Shown here piece after piece: positions 6,617 through 63,946 of a stretch of 64,000 nucleotides of DNA. Source of the DNA: Patescibacteria group bacterium (GTDB taxonomy: Bacteria > Patescibacteriota > Microgenomatia > UBA1400 > PJMF01); contig BOKX01000001.1 in NCBI GenBank assembly GCA_016861205.1, forward strand, positions 520,539 through 584,538, read 5' to 3'. Position 1 is the stretch's first letter; every line of letters begins with the position of its first letter. Made by a program: the position numbers and the translations under genes. Below the pieces are notes generated by a model. The model worked only from the letters and a program-made list of their open reading frames with translations. It was not told the origin of the DNA and made no database searches.

Positions 6617-8623
6617 ATGAATACTAGTTTGTGGTTAAGTAATCCAGTGTGGATCGGGTGGCTGCTCTGGGCGGTAGTTGGTTTGATCGTTAGCCTATAC
6701 CTGCCTGGGTCTCTACTTGTATCTCGTTTGAAACTCAAATCAACGAGCATGCATTTTGTGTTGGCTTGGGCTGTCGGCCTCGCACTATGGGCGGCTCAAG
6801 GCGTGCTCTTGGGCTACTTTCAGCTACGTTGGCTCACTTTTGGTTACATTGTTTTGGCACTCGTTGGCACGTGGTTCCAACGCGAAACAGAGCTCCAGCG
6901 ACACCGAGAGTTGTGGTCAAGTTTGCGACGAATGAGTAAGCTCACATGGCTCATGGTAGTAGTCGGGACACTGGTGCAAGTTCTACCTGTCATCGGAACC
7001 GGCTGGCAGTTTGCGGATGGCGTTCATTTTTACCGAATTAATGCGTACGACGGGGTCATGCACCTGGCCTATGTACAAGAACTCGTCCACCACTTCCCAC
7101 CGGCTGAACCTGGCGCATATTGGTTGCCTTTGGTGAACTACCACTACTGGTCAGATGTGGCGATGGCTGAGTTGAGTCGGGTCTGGCAGTTACCAATTAC
7201 CCACGTCGTTTTTCAAATTGCCCCATTAGGGCTTTCTCTTGTGACTGCTGCTGCGACCTATCAATTCTTGCGACAGGTAAGCGGCCGAGCTAGCGCCGGT
7301 CAATGGGGTTTGCTGTTCTTGTACGGAGCTGGTGAACTAACGTACCTGTTCATGTGGTACTTTCAGCGACGACTTGGCTTTGACATTACTCCAGCCATTG
7401 ATAATGGTGCCATGCAGTTCCTCAACCTCCCGCACTGCTTTGCCAAAGCCATTTTTATGAATGGTTTGTTGACTTTGTCGGCGGCTTGGAGTGAGGGTGC
7501 CAAAAACAAGTGGTGGTGGCTCATTTCCTTGGTGCTATTAAGCACGTTGGTTGGATTTAAAATCTACTTTGGCATGTTTGTGGCTCTAGGCTTAGTCCTA
7601 GCTTTGGCTGGTTACGGGCTCCAACAAGGTCATGTCCTGAAGTGGCAGTTACCCAAACTATGGAAAATGGTTTGGTGGCCAGGCGTCAGTGTTGCCTTCA
7701 TTGGATTAGTGATGATGGCTATTTTCTTTCCAGTAAACCATGGTGCGGGTGGACTCTTCTACTCACCGCTCGAATGGCCAAAACTATTTTTGGGCCACAC
7801 CAACTTGAATTGGCAGGGTTGGTGGCTGCGTCGGCAAGTGTATGAGGCGGCCGGTAACACCCGCAACTTGATCATCATGGATAGCTTGGCTATAGCAATC
7901 TGTTTGTTATCTATTCATGGCACCCGACTGTTGGGTTTGTGGCCACGCCGGTGGTGGCTTAAACTTGGTTGGCCCATGTTTTTATTTTTAAGTGGGCCAA
8001 CGCTCATCTTCACTTGGCTCGGTCTTTTTACCTTACAGGAATCAGGACTGTTTAATGTTTTTAATTTTTTTGCGGTCAGCACTATCCCGTTGGCGCTCGC
8101 TACTGCTTTGGTGTGTGACGAGTGGTGGTCTTCGAAGCGATGGTGGCTGAAAACATTCGTCGTTATCGTAGTCCTGTTAAGTATTCCTCGGGCTGTACAC
8201 ACTTCCTATTTTTATCTCGATACCTACCGCCACTCCAAAGTTGAACAAGTAGTCTCACCTGATGAACTGGCGGCTTTCCGGTTTATAGAGACCCAACTCC
8301 CAGCTGCCAGTGTTGTACAAAGTAGTCCACTCAACACTTGGGACAAAACATCACCTTACGTGGCGTACTACAGCCAGCGACCTGCCTACCTCAGCGGCGT
8401 GGGCATGATGGACACCCATAATCAGCCTGTCAGTGACCCGTATGCGGAGTACAAGAAGATGTTTATGGAAGTGGACGGTGTGACCCTGCGCAGCTACCTT
8501 CAGGATCGGGCTGTCACCCACGTGTACTTACGAAAAAAGGCTGATGAACTACCCAGTTACCCACCATCCGAATTGGGCTCCGTGGTTTTCGAAAACGACA
8601 GTGTGATGCTAGTAGCCCTCTAA
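6617..8623 (+). CDS. Large polytopic membrane protein (668 aa), putative GT-C-like glycosyltransferase or polymerase
   Basis: There are many transmembrane segments and Trp-rich loops. The start was set to the ATG at 6617 (MNTSLWLSNPVW). The gene sits inside the glycan cluster. Confidence 0.5.
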   Translation: MNTSLWLSNPVWIGWLLWAVVGLIVSLYLPGSLLVSRLKLKSTSMHFVLAWAVGLALWAAQGVLLGYFQLRWLTFGYIVLALVGTWFQRETELQRHRELWSSLRRMSKLTWLMVVVGTLVQVLPVIGTGWQFADGVHFYRINAYDGVMHLAYVQELVHHFPPAEPGAYWLPLVNYHYWSDVAMAELSRVWQLPITHVVFQIAPLGLSLVTAAATYQFLRQVSGRASAGQWGLLFLYGAGELTYLFMWYFQRRLGFDITPAIDNGAMQFLNLPHCFAKAIFMNGLLTLSAAWSEGAKNKWWWLISLVLLSTLVGFKIYFGMFVALGLVLALAGYGLQQGHVLKWQLPKLWKMVWWPGVSVAFIGLVMMAIFFPVNHGAGGLFYSPLEWPKLFLGHTNLNWQGWWLRRQVYEAAGNTRNLIIMDSLAIAICLLSIHGTRLLGLWPRRWWLKLGWPMFLFLSGPTLIFTWLGLFTLQESGLFNVFNFFAVSTIPLALATALVCDEWWSSKRWWLKTFVVIVVLLSIPRAVHTSYFYLDTYRHSKVEQVVSPDELAAFRFIETQLPAASVVQSSPLNTWDKTSPYVAYYSQRPAYLSGVGMMDTHNQPVSDPYAEYKKMFMEVDGVTLRSYLQDRAVTHVYLRKKADELPSYPPSELGSVVFENDSVMLVAL

Positions 8624-8640
8624 ACGCATCGGTCACCCGA

Positions 8641-10149
8641 CTACTGTTTCTGCCAATAGCGAGCCACCAACTGGCCGACTTCGGCCCGCAGTTGAGACCA
8701 ACCGATAACCACAAACGTGACCCCGTAACTCAAACCGCTCACTACCCCACCAAACAACAACCAGCTATAACTGCGTGCCCACCAGTCTTGCCCAAGCCAA
8801 CCAACGACACTCATTACGACTCCAGCCACCAGTGGTCTCCAGACTTGTGCCCAAATCGCCACATCAACTTCTTTTTTCACTAAGTAGACCGGCAAAATGG
8901 ATGTTAAGGAAATGATTAATGATGCCCACGCTACTCCATTAAATCCATACCAATACACTAACAACGGTGTCAGCAACCACGTCAAACTTAGCCACATACC
9001 CATTAATTTAAGTGACTGTTTAATCTGACCAATTGCGTTTAACGTTGACACTAACGGTGATGAAATTGCGGCTGGGATGATACTCAGCGCAAACAAGGTA
9101 AAGCTGAGTAATGCTGGTTGCCACTTAGCATACCGTGGCACAATTTCTGTTAGCGGACCCATTAAAATAATTGTGCCAATAATCAACGGCACAATCAGCA
9201 AACTGATAAAGAACGTTGTTTTCTCAATTGCTCTTTTTAAAACATGCGGATGCCCTTGCAGTCGCGAGTAGGTTGGGAACATGACAGCAGATACATTGCC
9301 AACTGTTAAGTTATATGGATACATCGACCAATTTTTGGCCCAATTGATGTAGCCAAACTCCGTCAGTGGCAAGAACCACCCCATCACCAAGTAGAATAAG
9401 TTATCCTTCACTCGGGCCAATAGATCATAGAGTTGGAAACGAATTCCGAACCCAACCAGTTGCTTGGTCACTGCCCGATCCCAGCTCAGACCAATGGACC
9501 ACGGTTGCAGGAACCACATGGCAACCACACCCACCAACGACCGGGCCATCGTTGCATAGGCATAGGCAATTACCCCTGCCCCTCGCCAGGCCATTACCAC
9601 CAAAACTCCAAAGAAAGTCAGCTGCTCCAGAATCTGCGGCACAACAACCTTCGAAAACTCCAGTTTTCGTTCGAGCTTGATTGATGAGATGGTTTTCAAA
9701 CTTACTAACGGAAAAGAAATAGCCAAGCTTAGTAACACCCATACGCCGGCTGAACCCGTTTTACTACTCACTAAACCAGTGGCCACCACTCCTAAGCTCA
9801 ACGCCACTATCAGCCACGACAGGAGTTGTTGGATGGTGAAAGCGACTCGGTACTGTTTCAGTGTTGGCTCAGTTTTTTGTTGTACCAAAGTGGCCGCCAG
9901 ACCGACATCGGAGAAAAACACGAGCAACCCAATAATTTGAGTCACAAAACCATAAATGCCAAAGTCAGCCGGATCCAAAAAGGCACTCAATAAAATACCC
10001 GCCACAAAGCCAACGATTTGGAGAAACGCACCGCGAATAAAAAACGACACTACCCCAACCAAACTTTTTTGTTTAATGGCATTTACCTCTGGCGACTCAA
10101 GCACCTCATCTGTTTCTTGGGTAGTATCGGGAGCAGTGTAGTTAATCAT
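8641..10149 (-). CDS. wzx: Wzx-type oligosaccharide/polysaccharide flippase (MOP superfamily)
   Basis: The protein is about 500 aa with 12-14 transmembrane segments. Its N-terminus resembles polysaccharide biosynthesis proteins. The start was set to the ATG at 10147-10149, whose ATGATTAA sequence overlaps the stop of the upstream gene. Confidence 0.65.
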   Translation of the reverse strand: MINYTAPDTTQETDEVLESPEVNAIKQKSLVGVVSFFIRGAFLQIVGFVAGILLSAFLDPADFGIYGFVTQIIGLLVFFSDVGLAATLVQQKTEPTLKQYRVAFTIQQLLSWLIVALSLGVVATGLVSSKTGSAGVWVLLSLAISFPLVSLKTISSIKLERKLEFSKVVVPQILEQLTFFGVLVVMAWRGAGVIAYAYATMARSLVGVVAMWFLQPWSIGLSWDRAVTKQLVGFGIRFQLYDLLARVKDNLFYLVMGWFLPLTEFGYINWAKNWSMYPYNLTVGNVSAVMFPTYSRLQGHPHVLKRAIEKTTFFISLLIVPLIIGTIILMGPLTEIVPRYAKWQPALLSFTLFALSIIPAAISSPLVSTLNAIGQIKQSLKLMGMWLSLTWLLTPLLVYWYGFNGVAWASLIISLTSILPVYLVKKEVDVAIWAQVWRPLVAGVVMSVVGWLGQDWWARSYSWLLFGGVVSGLSYGVTFVVIGWSQLRAEVGQLVARYWQKQ

Positions 10150-53176: not shown

Positions 53177-53713
53177 TTAAGCCGCGGCTTTACCTTGCTT
53201 ACGTCGAACTACTTCATCTTCATAACGGATACCTTTACCCTTGTAAGGTTCAGGTGGTTTGATCTTGCGAATGTTAGCTGCCATTTGGCCCACTACTTGC
53301 TTGTCGATACCCTCAATGTGAATAGTATCGGTGCCATCGATTGACAGCTTGATACCTGGTTCGGCTTTGATATCAACTGGATGTGAGAAACCCAGTGACA
53401 GACTGAGACCGGCCCCCTTCATGGTGACGCGATACCCAGTACCAACCAACTTCAAGGTTTTCTTATAACCAGTCGTGACACCAATCACTGCATTGTTCAG
53501 CAAACTGCGAACCAAACCATGATGAGCGCGCAGCTCTTTGGTCTCTTGTTGACGACCCACAGTTAGTTCATTGTCGGCGACAGTGACAGTGATACCAGCG
53601 GTAACTGGAACCATGACCTGACCTTTGGGGCCTGCCACAGTGACAGAATCAGCGTTAACGGTAACGGTGACTCCACTGGGAATACTGATAGCTTTACGTC
53701 CAATTCGTGACAT
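53177..53713 (-). CDS. rplF: 50S ribosomal protein L6
   Basis: MSRIGRKAISIPSGVTVTV. The start was set to the ATG at 53711-53713. Confidence 0.9.
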   Translation of the reverse strand: MSRIGRKAISIPSGVTVTVNADSVTVAGPKGQVMVPVTAGITVTVADNELTVGRQQETKELRAHHGLVRSLLNNAVIGVTTGYKKTLKLVGTGYRVTMKGAGLSLSLGFSHPVDIKAEPGIKLSIDGTDTIHIEGIDKQVVGQMAANIRKIKPPEPYKGKGIRYEDEVVRRKQGKAAA

Positions 53714-54358: not shown

Positions 54359-54913
54359 TTACTTGGTTTTCGCGAACGGCATTCCTAACATATCTAACAA
54401 CTCTCGAGCTGCTTCATCCTCTCGAGCGGTTGTGGTAATAACCACTTGTAAGCTCCGGATTGAGTCGATTTTGTCGTACTCAATCTCTGGGAAGATGATT
54501 TGCTCCTCAATACCCATACTGTAGTTACCTTGCCCATCAAAAGCAGTTCGTGACACACCTTGGAAGTCTTTCACCCGAGGCAAAGCGATCGAGATCAACT
54601 TGTCGAGAAACTCCCACATGTACTGACCTCGCAGTGTGACCATGACCCCCATTGGGTCGCCTTTTCGCAACTTAAAGTTGGAAATGGCTTGGCGAGCTCG
54701 AGTGGTCTGTGGTTGTTGGCCACTGATCAACTTGAACTGAGCTAACACATTTTCGATCACATCTTTACGAGCCCGAGGATCTTGAGGCTTAGTAATACCA
54801 GTGTTGATCACAATTTTGGTCAACCGTGGCACAGCCATCACACTCTTCACCCCCAATTTTTTCTGGAGGGCTGGACGGACTTCGTCGTTGTATTTTTGTT
54901 GTAAGCGATTCAT
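54359..54913 (-). CDS. rplE: 50S ribosomal protein L5
   Basis: MNRLQQKYNDEVRPALQKKLG. Confidence 0.9.
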   Translation of the reverse strand: MNRLQQKYNDEVRPALQKKLGVKSVMAVPRLTKIVINTGITKPQDPRARKDVIENVLAQFKLISGQQPQTTRARQAISNFKLRKGDPMGVMVTLRGQYMWEFLDKLISIALPRVKDFQGVSRTAFDGQGNYSMGIEEQIIFPEIEYDKIDSIRSLQVVITTTAREDEAARELLDMLGMPFAKTK

Positions 54914-59095: not shown

Positions 59096-59830
59096 TTACT
59101 TGGTTGCCTTAGCTGTTTTTGCAACTTTTTTGACTGGCTTGGCAGCTGGTTTAGCTTTGGCAACTTTTTTAGGCGCTTCAGCTGCAACTTTTGGCTGCTC
59201 AGCTTTTGCGATGCTAGCCATTAAGCGAGTCTCTAAAACTTTCAGGGCTTCAGCGGTAGTCACGACCTTATCGGCGGCGGCTACTTCTAAGGCGGTCACT
59301 CGACCGGCGGTCATAGTCAACACATTAGCCAAGTTGGCTAAACTGCGAACGACAGCTGGCTGGGTTTCACTCAGGATCACGAGAACTCGAGCGTCTCGAC
59401 CAGCGGCGGTAGCCACTAATTGAGCTGCAGCTTTGGTCTTACCCTTGAGCTCGCTCAGACCATCGTGAATCACGACGTTCTCGATTTGAGCTAAGAGGGC
59501 TGAGTGCAAGGCTTGATGCTTGGCTCGTTGGGGCAGTGATCGCACCCAGTTTTGCATACCGTTTGGACCATGGGAAATACCACCACCAACAAAGATGTTA
59601 GCAGTTCGAGCACCATGACGGGCATTACCTGTCCCTTTTTGCTTAAACCACTTCTTTTTGGTGCGGTTCACTTCGCTACGAGTCTTTACTTTGCTGGTAC
59701 CTTGGCGGGCGTTGCTGCGGTAAACCCGGATGGCTTTGGCCAGTTCTACATCATTGACTTCACCACTCAACCAAGCTGGAAGAGCCATTTGGGACTGAGT
59801 GCCGGTAGTAGTGTAGTGAGTTAATTTCAT
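59096..59830 (-). CDS. rplD: 50S ribosomal protein L4 with a Lys/Ala-rich C-terminal tail
   Basis: The L4 core is followed by the tail [31 protein letters not shown]. Confidence 0.9.
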   Translation of the reverse strand: MKLTHYTTTGTQSQMALPAWLSGEVNDVELAKAIRVYRSNARQGTSKVKTRSEVNRTKKKWFKQKGTGNARHGARTANIFVGGGISHGPNGMQNWVRSLPQRAKHQALHSALLAQIENVVIHDGLSELKGKTKAAAQLVATAAGRDARVLVILSETQPAVVRSLANLANVLTMTAGRVTALEVAAADKVVTTAEALKVLETRLMASIAKAEQPKVAAEAPKKVAKAKPAAKPVKKVAKTAKATK

Positions 59831-59834
59831 ATGA

Positions 59835-60626
59835 TTAAGCAGCTACTTCCTCAGTAGTTGGCTGACTTGCTTCGGCTGGTACTTCAGGTTGAGCTTCAGT
59901 TTCAACTTCAGTTGCTGGAGCTGACACTGGCTCTAAACCGGCACTTGCCAAATCTAGCTCAACTGGACGAGTCTCGCCAGTTTTCTCGATGACCACTCGT
60001 GAAGTGGCGAAACCTGGCACTGGGCCACTCAGCCAAACTTCTTTGGTACTTGGATCAATGTGCAATACCACCAAACCTTTAACAGTTTGTGTTTCGGTTC
60101 CAAAGTGACCTGGCATGCGTTGACCCTTGAGAACGCGACCTGGTGTGGTACCAGCACCAATAGAACCGACGGCCCGACCTCGGTCAGATTGACCATGGGT
60201 CTTAGGACCACCGTGGAAACCGTGTCGCTTCATCGCCCCAGCAAAACCGCGACCTTTGGTCACGCCTTGCACTTGGACAACATCGCCAACACTCAGGACT
60301 TGATCTAAAGCAATTTCTTGACCAACTTGGAGAGGAGCGGCTTCGCCCTCGGCAGGTTTGGCAACTCGCAGACCAGTGATTTGTCGAACACCAAATGAAA
60401 AACCACCCTTTTCTAATCTAGAGCGGAGTGGTTTGGACATGTTTTTCAGCTTCTTAGCGCCGTAACCAATTTCGAAAATGAGGTGATCTTGAACTGCAGG
60501 TTGGGTACCGACCACCACGTTAGGTTCGACTTGACAACGTGTGACAGCCACACGTTTACCAGCCTTGGTCCAGGCTTGGGTCATGCCTAATTTGGTCGCA
60601 AACACCGTCGTTACCATATATTCCAT
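59835..60626 (-). CDS. rplC: 50S ribosomal protein L3 with an acidic C-terminal tail
   Basis: TKLGMTQAW...GKGFAG is the L3 core. The tail reads TEVETEAQPEVPAEASQPTTEEVAA. The true start may instead be the ATG at 60617. Confidence 0.85.
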   Translation of the reverse strand: MEYMVTTVFATKLGMTQAWTKAGKRVAVTRCQVEPNVVVGTQPAVQDHLIFEIGYGAKKLKNMSKPLRSRLEKGGFSFGVRQITGLRVAKPAEGEAAPLQVGQEIALDQVLSVGDVVQVQGVTKGRGFAGAMKRHGFHGGPKTHGQSDRGRAVGSIGAGTTPGRVLKGQRMPGHFGTETQTVKGLVVLHIDPSTKEVWLSGPVPGFATSRVVIEKTGETRPVELDLASAGLEPVSAPATEVETEAQPEVPAEASQPTTEEVAA

Positions 60627-60688: not shown

Positions 60689-61015
60689 TTACATTTTTAT
60701 CTGAATATCAACCCCTGCTGGCAACTCTAAGTGCATCAGGGAATCGATAGTCTTGTTGGTTGGGTTGATAATTTCGATCAACCGCTTGTGAGTTCGAATC
60801 TGGTAGTGCTCTTGTGCATCCTTGTCGGTATGCGGAGACACTAACACGGTGAACCACTTGATGTGGGTTGGCAAAGGAACCGGGCCCACAACTTTGGCTC
60901 CAGTCGAGAGTGCCGTTTCAATAATCTTTTTGGCGGCTTCGTCGATTACACGATGGTCAAACGCTTTGAGTCTGACTCGAATCTTATAACCGGCTGAGGT
61001 TGGACTGGCTACCAT
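60689..61015 (-). CDS. rpsJ: 30S ribosomal protein S10
   Basis: [25 protein letters not shown]. Confidence 0.9.
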
Positions 61016-61172
61016 GTTGTACTTTGTTAAATGTCTGGTTAGTTAATTACTACTTGGGCTTGTTGCACCACTGCATACAAACACAGAGCGTGATTATACC
61101 GGTTCAACGACCAGATGTAAATACTTCAGTTTGAAGTGCGTATCTTTTAGTACCAGATCAAAGTTACTGTAT

Positions 61173-61796
61173 CTAAGGCATAACCGAATTTATTTGATCA
61201 GCCAACCATATTCTGAGTTCATATAAAAACACATCTCGCATCTGCTTGAGCTCTATCCACAGCCCCATACCAACAGACTCATCATGCAAGACAGCTTCGA
61301 CCATCGGCAAATCAAAAGCTTGATCAACCAAAGGGGCGGTGGAGTCATAGCTATTGCACGGCACCCGGACCTGAATAGCTAGTTGGGCATCACCTAGGGT
61401 TAACAGAAACGTGTATGACTCCATAAAGCCTGAAAACACCTCTGAAGTCGGTGGTACCTCAAAGACCAGGTCTGGCAATCGATGAACTACATCAATGCTC
61501 TCCCACCTGTCTGGCCGAGTCACATCACTTTGTTGCAAATCATATGCTTCACCAGTGAGGGCTAGTTGTTCCGCATGGACTGGTTGAAAACGGGCCAGTT
61601 TTTGGACTACCTCAGCTTCAGTTCGTTGCTCGCGCTGTGCCAGCAGCTGATAGAGCTCAGGAGCTTCCACCAACATATATCCCCACTTTAAATCGAGCGC
61701 GCGATACTGGACTGACTCAGTTTCTCTGGAAGGATTGCTCATTTCAAACCTATCATACGATTGGTGACGCTCTAGGTCAAAATGTAACCAATACAT
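61173..61796 (-). CDS. Hypothetical protein (about 190-207 aa) between tuf and rpsJ
   Basis: An acidic protein with no known motif. Possible start codons lie at 61796 and 61742. Confidence 0.4.
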   Translation of the reverse strand: MYWLHFDLERHQSYDRFEMSNPSRETESVQYRALDLKWGYMLVEAPELYQLLAQREQRTEAEVVQKLARFQPVHAEQLALTGEAYDLQQSDVTRPDRWESIDVVHRLPDLVFEVPPTSEVFSGFMESYTFLLTLGDAQLAIQVRVPCNSYDSTAPLVDQAFDLPMVEAVLHDESVGMGLWIELKQMRDVFLYELRIWLADQINSVMP

Positions 61797-61832
61797 CTAA
61801 GTGGGTTGGATTTATTTGCAATTAAACAAATA

Positions 61833-62204
61833 TTACTCTGCCTCTAGTGTTTGAAACCCAGCCTCCAGTTCACTAAGAATGGCCATGATTTGGCTTGATT
61901 TTTCAAGCCAGACAATATCACTTGTAATAAAAAGCAACTGAAAAAAGAGTGTAGACTTTTGTTCAATGTGACTATGCAATTTCTTCTCAAAGAGTAACTG
62001 GACAGCAACGGATTCTAAAACCCAGCTTTTAATATTCTTGTTTAAGTAATCGCGTAAAACGTGTGCAAAAACAATTTTTGCTTCTGTTCCTGTCAATTTT
62101 TCTTTTGAAAAGCTAAATTCGTCTAGATACGCTAAAAGTACTTCTTCGGCTGTTGCAGCTAACAAAGGAAAACGTAATTTTTCGTATTTTTTTTTGATGG
62201 TCAT
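61833..62204 (-). CDS. Hypothetical small helical protein (about 123 aa) in an AT-rich insertion; candidate immunity or antitoxin-like partner
   Basis: The start was set to the ATG at 62202-62204 (MTIKKKYEKL). Local GC is low. It is paired with the ORF at 62266. Confidence 0.4.
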   Translation of the reverse strand: MTIKKKYEKLRFPLLAATAEEVLLAYLDEFSFSKEKLTGTEAKIVFAHVLRDYLNKNIKSWVLESVAVQLLFEKKLHSHIEQKSTLFFQLLFITSDIVWLEKSSQIMAILSELEAGFQTLEAE

Positions 62205-62265
62205 AACTCTCAAATTGAAATTGGGGAGAGAAGGTTGACTCCTCTCCCCAAATGGAGGCAGAGAC

Positions 62266-62610
62266 TTATGTAATGATTAAAGAACTTGTCCGACGCTGAA
62301 GCGCATCTTTCCATGTCACTTCGTTGCCGGGGTCCCATCTAATTACGTCTCCGGGGCCATTTGGTCTCTCATGACCACTTCCCACAATGTAGCAATGAGC
62401 GCCCTTGAAAACAACAGTGTCATAGCTTATATGACGATTTATATCTGCGTTATAGTAAACCGTATGATACACATCGTCACCATCCAATGTTGTTCCCATT
62501 CGCTTCTGCTCAACATTTTGGGCATTTCGCAGATCTGTTTTTCTGCCACTGCCATAATACAATTCGCTCAAAATTGCACCTCCTATGCTAACTGGGCGAA
62601 TCCCCTGCAT
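62266..62610 (-). CDS. Hypothetical protein (114 aa) in an AT-rich insertion; candidate toxin-like partner
   Basis: MQGIRPVSIGG...GAHCYIVGSGHERPNGPGDVIRWDPGNE shows no confident family match. An 8-bp hairpin, GGGGAGAG..CTCTCCCC at 62214-62242, separates it from the downstream ORF. Confidence 0.4.
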   Translation of the reverse strand: MQGIRPVSIGGAILSELYYGSGRKTDLRNAQNVEQKRMGTTLDGDDVYHTVYYNADINRHISYDTVVFKGAHCYIVGSGHERPNGPGDVIRWDPGNEVTWKDALQRRTSSLIIT

Positions 62611-62697
62611 CCTCGCAATTGAGAATCAGGGACTAACATTATGTTGGTTGCAGTAGAGTTTTGGAATGCATCAAATATACATATCTCATGGAAAATC

Positions 62698-62730
62698 AAA
62701 AAGCCCCTCACAAATGTGAGGGGCTTTCAT
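62698..62730 (-). terminator. Rho-independent terminator downstream of tuf (the hairpin could act in either direction)
   Basis: AAAGCCCCTCACA-AAT-GTGAGGGGCTTT is followed on the minus strand by TTTTGATTTT. Confidence 0.6.
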
Positions 62731-62749
62731 TTCTAAAATTACGCCAAAA

Positions 62750-63946
62750 TTATTTGATAACTTTGGTAATGGCACCAGCACCAATGGTGTGACCACCCTC
62801 GCGGATGGCGAAGCGCAAGCCCTCGTTCAGAGCGACTGGCACAATCAGCTTCACACTCATCTTGGCGTTGTCGCCTGGCATGACCATTTCCACACCTTCT
62901 GGGAGTTTGATCTCACCAGTCACGTCAGTGGTTCGGATGTAGAACTGAGGTCGGTAACCAGTGAAGAATGGCTTGTGTCGGCCACCTTCTTCTTTGGTTA
63001 AGATGTACACTTCAGCCTCGAACTCGGTGTGAGGAGTCACGGTACCTGGTTTGGCCAGTACTTGACCACGCTCGACGTCGTCTTTTTCGATGCCTCGCAA
63101 GAGGATACCGACGTTGTCACCAGCTTGACCCTCGTCCAGCATTTTGCGGAACATTTCGACACCAGTAACGGTAGTCTTTCGAGTGTCTTTCAAGCCAACA
63201 ACTTCGATTTCTTCACCAACTTTGATCTTGCCTGAGTCGATACGACCAGTCACGACGGTACCACGACCCTTGATTGAGAAGACGTCTTCAACGCCCATCA
63301 AGAATGGTTTGTCGAGGTCACGAACTGGATCTGGGACGTACTCGTCGACAGTGTTCATCAGTTCCATGATCTTGTCTTGGTAGGTGGCATCACCTTCCAA
63401 AGCTTTGAGAGCTGAAACACGGACGATAGGAGTGTTGTCACCATCGTAACCGTATTTACTCAGCAACTCGCGGATTTCCATCTCAACGAGGTCGAGCAGT
63501 TCAGCGTCATCGACCATGTCACATTTGTTGAGAGCCACGACCAATTTTGGCACGTTGACCTGTTTGGCCAACAGAATGTGCTCTCGAGTTTGTGGCATAG
63601 GACCGTCGGTCGCAGCCACCACCAAAATAGCACCGTCCATCTGGGCGGCACCGGTGATCATGTTCTTGATGTAGTCAGCGTGACCTGGAGCGTCGATGTG
63701 AGCGTAGTGACGCTTGGCGGTTTCGTACTCTAAGTGTGAGATGTTAATAGTAACACCACGAGCTGCCTCTTCAGGAGCGTTGTCGATGTCACCATAACCC
63801 ATAGCCTTGTTCAAAGGTGATGGAACCTTGGCAGCCAAAGTTGTAGTGATGGCGGCTGACAGGGTGGTTTTACCATGGTCAACGTGACCGATGGTACCAA
63901 TGTTGACGTGAGGTTTGTTGCGAACAAACTTTTGGGCGTCTGCCAT
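62750..63946 (-). CDS. tuf: Elongation factor Tu
   Basis: [18 protein letters not shown] and NKCD GTPase motifs; 398 aa. Confidence 0.95.

Follow-up and report, generated by a model that had tools for sequence, protein, structure and literature searches.

The interval between tuf (elongation factor EF-Tu) and rpsJ (ribosomal protein S10) of a Patescibacteria group bacterium was analyzed in a 64,000-nt stretch of contig BOKX01000001.1 (positions 520,539 to 584,538), which is termed the window. Two acquisitions appear to have filled this interval: (i) ORF C, which on the distribution of its homologs is evidently the older resident gene of the slot, and (ii) a 946-bp cassette carrying two small genes, ORF A and ORF B, which is very probably a strain-specific addition from outside. 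Comparison with close strains and with distant loci demonstrates the polarity of the insertion, the pairing of A with B, selection on their protein-coding sequences and the architecture of the locus.

A strain-specific cassette behind tuf

The minus-strand order of the locus is tuf, terminator, ORF A, hairpin, ORF B, ORF C, promoter, rpsJ and the remaining S10/spc genes (Table 1). The tuf-rpsJ spacer measures 1,734 bp and includes three co-directional ORFs, while the median gap is 194 bp among 34 related patescibacterial genomes that have tuf and rpsJ on one contig. A first-pass annotation, made by a model from the DNA letters, had described a tuf gene with a terminator of its own, a spacer of about 1.7 kb and three ORFs; all of this is borne out by the ORF list, by the measured distances and by the canonical intrinsic terminator found 3′ of tuf (62728-62699).

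The 946-bp segment occupies the exact place of 54 bp in strain L087 and in the outgroup L084. These 54 bp form the native tuf terminator (ACTCCCCCCGC-(GAAA/TTTC)-GCGGGGGGAGT), which is common to L087 and L084. The segment that replaces them includes a new tuf terminator (GAAAGCCCCTCACA-TTTG-TGTGAGGGGCTTT, followed by a T-run), ORF A, the hairpin and ORF B. In L087 and L088, which share 99.1-99.5% nucleotide identity with the window on both sides of the segment, the order is tuf, 54 bp, ORF C and rpsJ. Over the 11.5 kb available for L087, the window differs by 97 substitutions, and the 946-bp replacement is the only indel; tuf itself is 99.45% identical to that of L087, as far as window position 62744. 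The same order of tuf, 54 bp, ORF C and rpsJ is found in L084-L086, in which ORF C has 65% amino acid identity. As the 54-bp terminator is shared by L087 and the outgroup L084, the state without A and B is ancestral. The segment is thus present or absent between close strains (window versus L087/L088) with conserved flanks.

The horizontal acquisition of A and B that the first-pass annotation had proposed is well supported, since a 99%-identical strain is devoid of both genes, the outgroup is A/B-free and the pair recurs in unrelated contexts. Its further proposal, that all three ORFs constitute one horizontally acquired insertion between tuf and rpsJ, is not sustained and is now very improbable. 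A single event would account for three co-directional genes in an enlarged spacer, none of which belongs to a known family. However, ORF C occurs without A/B in the 99%-identical L087/L088 and in L084-L086, where its ortholog is 65% identical; thus, the interval is not one three-gene insertion. ORF C also has normal GC and its own conserved promoter, and A-B is found elsewhere without C. The comparison of tuf-rpsJ intervals that had been suggested as a check therefore divides the three genes: A and B are absent from the slots of the relatives, but ORF C is shared with L087/L088 and L084-L086.

Composition is in part consistent with this history. The 946-bp segment has a GC content of 0.393, within the lowest 0.6% of windows, and is thus atypical for the host. 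The AT-rich dip that had been reported at about 61800 to 62700 is real, but is essentially ORF B and its flanks, with ORF A only mildly low. No stretch of the 64 kb has a lower GC content than ORF B, whose GC3 also falls below that of the lowest host gene. ORF C has normal GC, as had been noted. The B homolog of L089 has a GC content of 0.315 next to an A partner of 0.52; as B is AT-rich there too, part of the compositional bias is intrinsic to gene B.

Table 1. Features of the tuf-rpsJ interval in window coordinates; GC and GC3 z scores refer to 48 long window ORFs (GC 0.488 +/- 0.026, minimum 0.431; GC3 0.498 +/- 0.048, minimum 0.375)
Feature	Position	Strand	Description
rpsJ (S10)	60689..61015	-	PF00338; first gene of the S10/spc ribosomal protein cluster
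S10-operon promoter	61093..61121	-	TTTACA, 17 nt, TATAAT; near-consensus; right boundary of the variable slot
ORF C	61173..61742	-	189 aa, acidic (pI 4.4); start most likely ATG 61742; GC 0.482 (z -0.2), GC3 0.468 (z -0.6); clade-restricted resident of the tuf-rpsJ slot
ORF C promoter	61752..61780	-	TTGACC, 17 nt, TATGAT; ends 9 nt before ATG 61742
A-B cassette	61798..62743	-	946-bp strain-specific replacement segment; blastn break points against L087/L088 and L084-L086, junction sequences
ORF B	61833..62204	-	123 aa, predicted all-helical; GC 0.349 (z -5.4), GC3 0.323 (z -3.7); fast-evolving partner of A
GC-rich A-B hairpin	62221..62251	-	13-bp stem, -26.7 kcal/mol, fold z -4.1, weak T-run
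ORF A	62266..62571	-	101 aa, predicted beta-rich; start most likely TTG 62571; GC 0.438 (z -1.95), GC3 0.392 (z -2.2); rare unnamed family of stand-alone proteins of ~100 aa
Shine-Dalgarno sequence of ORF A	62579..62584	-	AGGAGG, 7 nt upstream of TTG 62571; conserved in L089
Candidate weak ORF A promoter	62638..62666	-	TTCCAA, 17 nt, CATAAT; picked by eye, 8/12 matches, tentative
Intrinsic terminator 3′ of tuf, cassette-borne	62699..62728	-	13-bp stem, T-run; inverted repeat of 13 nt, 100% complementary
tuf (EF-Tu)	62750..63946	-	398 aa, from the ORF list; left conserved flank of the variable slot

Recurrence of the A-B pair

A followed by B occurs in four unrelated neighborhoods: the tuf/S10 boundary of the window, L089, L091 and L098. 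The L089 locus carries an A homolog (68% identical), a hairpin and a B homolog (38% identical, E 1e-27) that adjoin a fragment of an EEP-family nuclease; a distance of 5 nt separates the end of this B homolog from the 3′ end of a tRNA-Val(GAC) gene in convergent orientation (L089:1929-2012). The 3′ end of a tRNA gene is a classical integration position. At L091, A, hairpin and B lie among type IV pilin-like genes. At L098 they are followed by three unknown genes (194, 113 and 541 aa) and then, on the same strand and about 2.7 kb downstream, by a TIR-domain protein (L098:3578-4419) that matches the CAP12/Pycsar TIR family (PF10137, E 9e-40) and the PADLOC candidate defense family PDC-S35 (E 1e-72); the surroundings of A-B in L098 may be a defense-island context. 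The B homologs directly downstream of A are readily recognized from the window copy in L089 and, at E 1e-9, in L098, while that of L091 matches the window copy at E 0.02 and the L089 copy at 1e-7. A fifth locus, L099, has A, hairpin, TATAAT and ATG, at which point the contig ends.

B evolves faster than A (38% versus 66-68% identity between the same two loci), and the divergence of B tracks that of A. The SYD, GSGHER and RWD motifs of A are intact in all five B-linked copies, whereas A copies without B are degenerate, with SYN, GSGQES and RWN in the solo protein P0010 and GSGHTT in P0007. A and B are considered a probable functional pair.

Between the window and L089, the non-synonymous (pN) and synonymous (pS) divergence is 0.17 and 0.74 for ORF A and 0.40 and 0.78 for ORF B, and both genes are evidently under purifying selection. 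It is extremely improbable that the two small ORFs are no genes at all and that the segment is AT-rich non-coding filler or a product of faulty assembly. Such an account would fit the absence of family matches and the low confidence of the AlphaFold2 (AF2) models, but not the saturated synonymous and low non-synonymous change, nor the conserved Shine-Dalgarno sequence and start. In addition, the locus was assembled identically and independently from three sequencing runs (L001-L003), and the exact A and B proteins are also present on an NCBI record tied to a 1.15-Mb contig.

Other collections added no relatives. A tblastn search of 50,697 phage records gave no match for A, B or C, a search of plasmids gave none for A, and pattern scans of JGI metagenomes and IMG/VR gave no confirmed relative for the A or B profile. 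Within the window, no further copy of the 946-bp segment and no paralog of A, B or C was found. One JGI contig (sample 3300071358) encodes an A homolog, P0006, with GSGRER in place of GSGHER; 8 bp on lies a 100-aa gene that overlaps a 35-aa gene, and as their combined length is close to that of B, the two may represent a B gene with a frameshift.

The ORF A, ORF B and ORF C genes

ORF A had been drawn at 62266-62610 (about 114 aa) by the first-pass annotation; the gene is real, but its start most likely lies at TTG 62571 (101 aa) and probably not at ATG 62610. This start is assigned because nucleotide similarity of the region to L089 begins exactly at the AGGAGG and because the members of the A family all begin just before an F/Y-Y motif. 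The candidate promoter of ORF A falls under the threshold of the promoter scan (9/12 matches). Further motifs of the protein are DG..YH.xY, HISYDTV, YI.GSGHER, RWD and TW.EAL, and one homolog (P0004) is 68% identical. With the A profile, HMMER was run exhaustively against 1.84 billion representative proteins and returned 19 matches. Of these, 14 are short stand-alone proteins (71-148 aa), 13 of which were included in an alignment with ORF A. The five remaining matches, to long proteins (429-2,326 aa), look spurious: two are PKD or Kelch repeat proteins, and the remainder match over short multiple stretches only. No match to ORF A was found in Pfam, NCBIfam, PADLOC, PHROGs or the PDB, by single sequence or by profile, hits of the A profile in the PDB being at chance level (E ~1), and family scans that took in homologs and neighboring genes brought up nothing of relevance; the weak, non-significant profile matches are to small beta-barrels of the SH3b, Tudor or YccV-like type. 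The AF2 model, built from a two-sequence alignment, is beta-rich with a pLDDT of 42 and is too poor to interpret.

ORF B starts at ATG 62204 (MTIKKKYEKLRFPL...), as do its homologs. It likewise has no match in Pfam, NCBIfam, PADLOC, PHROGs or the PDB, and a PDB search with the B profile stayed at chance level; the statement of the first-pass annotation that neither small protein belongs to a recognized family thus holds across family, PDB and phage collections. The single-sequence AF2 model of B has seven helices and a pLDDT of 59, too poor to interpret, and fold searches with this low-confidence model were empty.

The hairpin reported between A and B is present, with a stem of 13 bp rather than 8 bp. 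A stable hairpin, different in sequence each time, lies 3′ of the A gene in six of the seven loci with downstream DNA, and the four A-B spacers (61-82 nt) all include stable GC hairpins (fold z -3.3 to -5.0). A clear T-run after the stem was seen by eye in the window and L091 only. In L091, L098 and L099, a TATAAT lies 7-10 nt before the start of B; this position suggests a separate B transcript, and transcription from a -10 box specific to B probably yields an mRNA with no leader or almost none. An outer helix that pairs the A stop region with the B start was also considered and rejected: it is seen in the window and L089, whereas L091 and L098 do not have it.

ORF C had been placed at 61173-61796, and its start is here moved to ATG 61742. 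The ATG at 61796 is a product of the insertion junction (insert ...TTAGAT / GTATTGG...), the upstream frame carries a TGA in L084, and the promoter and ATG 61742 are conserved in all three lineages (the window, L087 and L084); thus, ORF C most likely spans 61173-61742. Only two homologs were found among 5.8 billion protein clusters, and both are encoded between tuf and rpsJ without A/B. The copies of L087/L088 are 99% identical to that of the window, and comparison with the ortholog of L084 gives a pN of 0.22 and a pS of 0.73. ORF C has no family match in Pfam, NCBIfam, PADLOC or PHROGs, and a PDB search gave chance-level results (E ~1).

Possible functions of the A-B pair

The whole is best explained, tentatively and with somewhat less than an even chance, by a slot that was filled twice and by an A-B unit that acts as an effector-neutralizer pair. 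The functional part of this explanation, a toxin-antitoxin-like pair with a role in addiction or defense, is circumstantial and, taken by itself, rather unlikely. A would be the effector and B a neutralizer that is separately and constitutively expressed. The hints are that the pair is a mobile conserved unit in islet-like contexts, that the divergence of B exceeds that of A while keeping pace with it, that B has an apparent promoter independent of A, and that the polar SYD, GSGHER and RWD positions of A are altered in the two copies without B.

Several observations weigh against an effector-neutralizer role. Neither A nor B is linked by sequence or profile to any toxin, antitoxin, immunity or defense family, and the structure models are of low confidence with empty fold searches. 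The invariant residues of the A family are Gly and Tyr, which are structural-looking, and the His of GSGHE is replaced in four of the 14 aligned members. A is followed by no B in L100, where A and its hairpin precede a convergent ArsP gene, and by an ORF other than B in L095; the link between motif integrity and the presence of B is a comparison of five loci with two, and thus of a small sample. The -10 element that corresponds to the TATAAT of other loci is weaker in the window (TTCAAT) and in L089 (TAAAAT). In canonical type II systems, a single transcript tightly couples the two genes. By contrast, the A-B spacer of 61-82 nt holds a strong hairpin, and B appears to have its own -10 box and not to be coupled to A.

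Measured against type II toxin-antitoxin systems, A and B are two small co-directional genes that stay paired in different contexts, though A is alone in L100 and L095. They do not appear to form a single bicistronic operon with overlapping or abutting frames, and neither a recognized toxin superfamily nor an antitoxin DNA-binding domain (RHH, HTH, AbrB, Phd/YefM) was detected. A shows neither the trafficking domains of polymorphic toxins and bacteriocins nor a position at the C-terminal tip of a large protein. Reading by eye, with no predictor run, revealed no hydrophobic N-terminus, signal peptide or trafficking domain in A; since A is a short (101 aa) stand-alone protein with no export signal seen in this way, a secreted toxin-immunity pair is unlikely. 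Of the toxin-antitoxin or toxin-immunity module proposed by the first-pass annotation, the circumstantial hints survive; the toxin and antitoxin families and the operon coupling do not, and the secreted form is disfavored.

A and B may instead be a mobile but non-toxic accessory pair, for instance a small binder that works with an adaptor or regulator, or a factor of host or phage interaction; this is possible, if doubtful. The pair would hitch-hike between variable regions, the hairpin would serve as a terminator or mRNA stabilizer of A, and B would be transcribed independently. A non-toxic role agrees with the lack of a toxin-like catalytic signature, with the invariant Gly and Tyr and the non-universal His of GSGHE, with the hairpin and separate -10 box between the genes, with the occurrence of A without B in L100 and L095, and with weak profile matches to SH3b/Tudor/YccV-like barrels, which are binding modules and not enzymes. 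However, the sporadic, strain-variable islet contexts (a tRNA 3′ end, a TIR neighbor and an inter-operon slot) are more typical of selfish or defense modules, the partner B evolves fast, and it is exactly the copies without B in which A has lost its polar motif residues. A toxin-antitoxin pair with the roles reversed, with A as an abundant upstream antitoxin, B as a low-expressed toxin and the hairpin throttling read-through, is improbable. In its favor, the antitoxin-first order is the commonest in type II systems, A has a strong Shine-Dalgarno sequence and B has none, and the A genes that stand alone in L100 and L095 could be read as orphan antitoxins that do no harm. However, conservation is much lower in B (38%) than in A (66-68%), and known toxins are usually the better conserved partner. 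A also has no recognizable DNA-binding domain, and a -10 box of B in three loci does not fit throttled read-through.

The tuf-rpsJ slot in relatives

The tuf gene is 80-93% identical to the tuf genes of patescibacterial relatives, and none of the 34 genomes of the gap survey has a homolog of A, B or C. Five of the 34 have gaps above 400 bp (L029, 2,713 bp; L004, 2,043 bp; L036, 1,626 bp; L030, 793 bp; L022, 443 bp). The cargo was read for the four largest gaps, L022 being counted by gap size alone, and is mostly ORFan, mutually unrelated and unrelated to that of the window. The closest reference genome, L004 (tuf 93% identical), has three tandem ORFs of 113 aa (8314-9351), two of which are paralogs (48% identical); the other strand may encode a further ORF of 156 aa. 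The L004 ORFs have no Pfam match and resemble none of A, B and C. The window and L004 cease to be similar at the tuf stop codon, and the similarity returns with the -35 box of the S10 promoter at 61126. The slot of L029 holds two paralogous ORFan genes of about 160 aa and then a frameshifted methylpurine glycosylase, that of L036 one 437-aa protein and that of L030 one 99-aa ORF. Relatedness of the L004 or L029 cargo to ORF C was considered and rejected, as no similarity was found. Thus, unrelated cargo in the enlarged gaps of relatives identifies the boundary between tuf terminator and S10 promoter as a recurrently used slot, with different genes at the same position in related genomes.

The glycosylase of L029 (methylpurine-DNA glycosylase, L029:8817-9379, PF02245, E 4e-36) appears split over two frames into ORFs of 107 aa and 95 aa and looks like a frameshifted pseudogene in the tuf-rpsJ slot. 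By rplC, the best relatives of the window are metagenome-assembled genomes labeled Pacebacteria, Paceibacterota, Microgenomatus or Woesebacteria. A number of the metagenome-assembled genomes with clearly patescibacterial rplC, tuf and rpsJ are titled 'uncultured Pseudomonadales bacterium' (L004, L008, L010, L012, L014 and others), 'Methylococcaceae' (L011) or 'Limisphaerales' (L039), which looks like a problem of taxonomy labels in those records.

Proposed route of entry

The gap between the tuf terminator and the S10 promoter would be a permissive landing slot in this Pacebacteria/Microgenomatia-like lineage, one that was very probably filled twice in the strain of the window. The ancestor of a small clade would first have gained ORF C, now a resident with its own promoter. 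Very recently, one strain would then have exchanged the 54-bp native terminator for the 946-bp cassette, in which A, hairpin and B are proposed to form a mobile functional unit, with a well conserved, beta-rich A translated from the AGGAGG.

Nothing convincing was found in the way of direct or inverted repeats flanking the cassette or of a target-site duplication, the tuf-rpsJ interval has no integrase-like ORF, and no tRNA gene was found in the window. Thus, the locus shows neither the machinery nor the scars of mobility usual for islets. With no integrase, duplication or terminal repeat, recombination of imported DNA is the simplest explanation, and we infer natural transformation, guided by the conserved flanks, as the route. 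The tuf gene is 96% identical in nucleotide sequence even to that of L084 and would thus serve very well as a homology arm; with crossovers in tuf and in ORF C/rpsJ, the cassette would pass from strain to strain of the species. Natural competence is established for cultivated Saccharibacteria, in which linear cassettes are integrated through homology arms of about 1 kb (PMC10633639). Compared with L087, the window has clusters of third-position single-nucleotide polymorphisms (SNPs), with 18 in about 100 bp of rplF (53558-53660) and nine in about 50 bp of rplE (54623-54674), mostly spaced by multiples of three; these clusters look like short tracts that recombination brought in from a relative of greater divergence. 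The original illegitimate insertion left no recognizable scar, which counts against this scheme, and the mechanism of entry is a deduction.

Relation to known systems

The A-B unit resembles the reverse-order type II toxin-antitoxin modules, which have an extra antitoxin promoter (e.g., higBA, mqsRA, hicAB and rnlAB). The shared features are small co-directional genes that move as a unit with a sporadic, strain-specific distribution, a better conserved upstream gene (A) and a fast-evolving downstream gene (B) with an apparent promoter of its own. Unlike type II systems, A and B match no known toxin or antitoxin family or fold, have no detected DNA-binding domain, neither overlap nor abut but are set 61-82 nt apart by a spacer with a strong hairpin, and include an A that is sometimes alone.

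Strain-variable slots between core genes are described for many bacteria. The tuf-rpsJ slot is similar to such core-flanked islets and hot spots in its strain variability, deviant composition, different cargo in the same position and highly conserved flanks (tuf on one side, the S10 promoter and rpsJ on the other). It differs in that the slot is very small (a 0.9-kb cassette), in that no integrase, tRNA, insertion sequence (IS) element or repeats accompany it, and in that the terminator which the cassette replaces, and for which it apparently substitutes functionally, belongs to an essential gene of high expression. Thus, a small strain-variable islet in a core-flanked hot spot is a well-known kind of feature, while the A and B families are new and unnamed.

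Prophage morons are likewise compact units between hairpins or terminators, with apparent promoter elements of their own and a lower GC content than their surroundings. By contrast, the neighbors of A-B are tuf and ribosomal protein genes, and the phage records (A, B and C) and IMG/VR (A and B) provided no match. The tufA-rpsJ interval of Escherichia coli, which holds chiA, bfd, bfr and gspO, is a similar example of a str/tuf-S10 boundary that tolerates inserted genes; however, the E. coli genes are unrelated, belong to another lineage and are species-fixed rather than strain-variable.

Neighboring genes and other features

Two ribosomal protein genes downstream of rpsJ encode proteins that are longer than usual in bacteria. 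The L4 of rplD (59096-59830) has a Lys/Ala-rich C-terminal tail of about 45 aa, and the L3 of rplC (59835-60626) has an acidic C-terminal extension rich in Pro, Glu and Thr (...TEVETEAQPEVPAEASQPTTEEVAA). A 15-nt near-repeat (87% identical; ATCAAATAA(A)TT(C/T)GG on the coding strand) is formed by the last codons and stop of ORF C (61184-61198) and of tuf (62744-62758); although this similarity is probably due to chance, its position coincides with the left edge of the junction of the cassette. An Rfam scan of the window gave no family at the gathering threshold, and the E-value mode gave chance matches on terminator hairpins only.

Significance

It is conceivable, if unlikely, that A and B are the founders of an undescribed effector-neutralizer family (toxin-antitoxin-like or abortive-infection-like) of about a dozen members, all from uncultured organisms, with a split architecture and spread by recombination in naturally competent Patescibacteria. 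The split architecture would consist of a strongly translated effector gene that is closed by a hairpin and followed by a leaderless neutralizer gene with its own promoter, and the family would spread into slots between ultra-conserved genes such as tuf and rpsJ. If the effector-neutralizer pair is real, A-B represents a new family with an atypical transcriptional layout; if it is not, the cassette is an ordinary islet of ORFan genes.

The locus documents, in a clean and dated form, how an ultra-small Patescibacteria genome gained genes, with one 946-bp cassette setting apart strains that are otherwise 99% identical. The cassette is devoid of mobile-element machinery, immediately follows a gene that is among the most highly expressed and brings a substitute terminator. 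Together with the unrelated cargo that relatives carry at this position, this suggests that the tuf/S10 boundary is a neutral site of natural origin in the lineage, which would be of use for engineering since some Patescibacteria are transformable.

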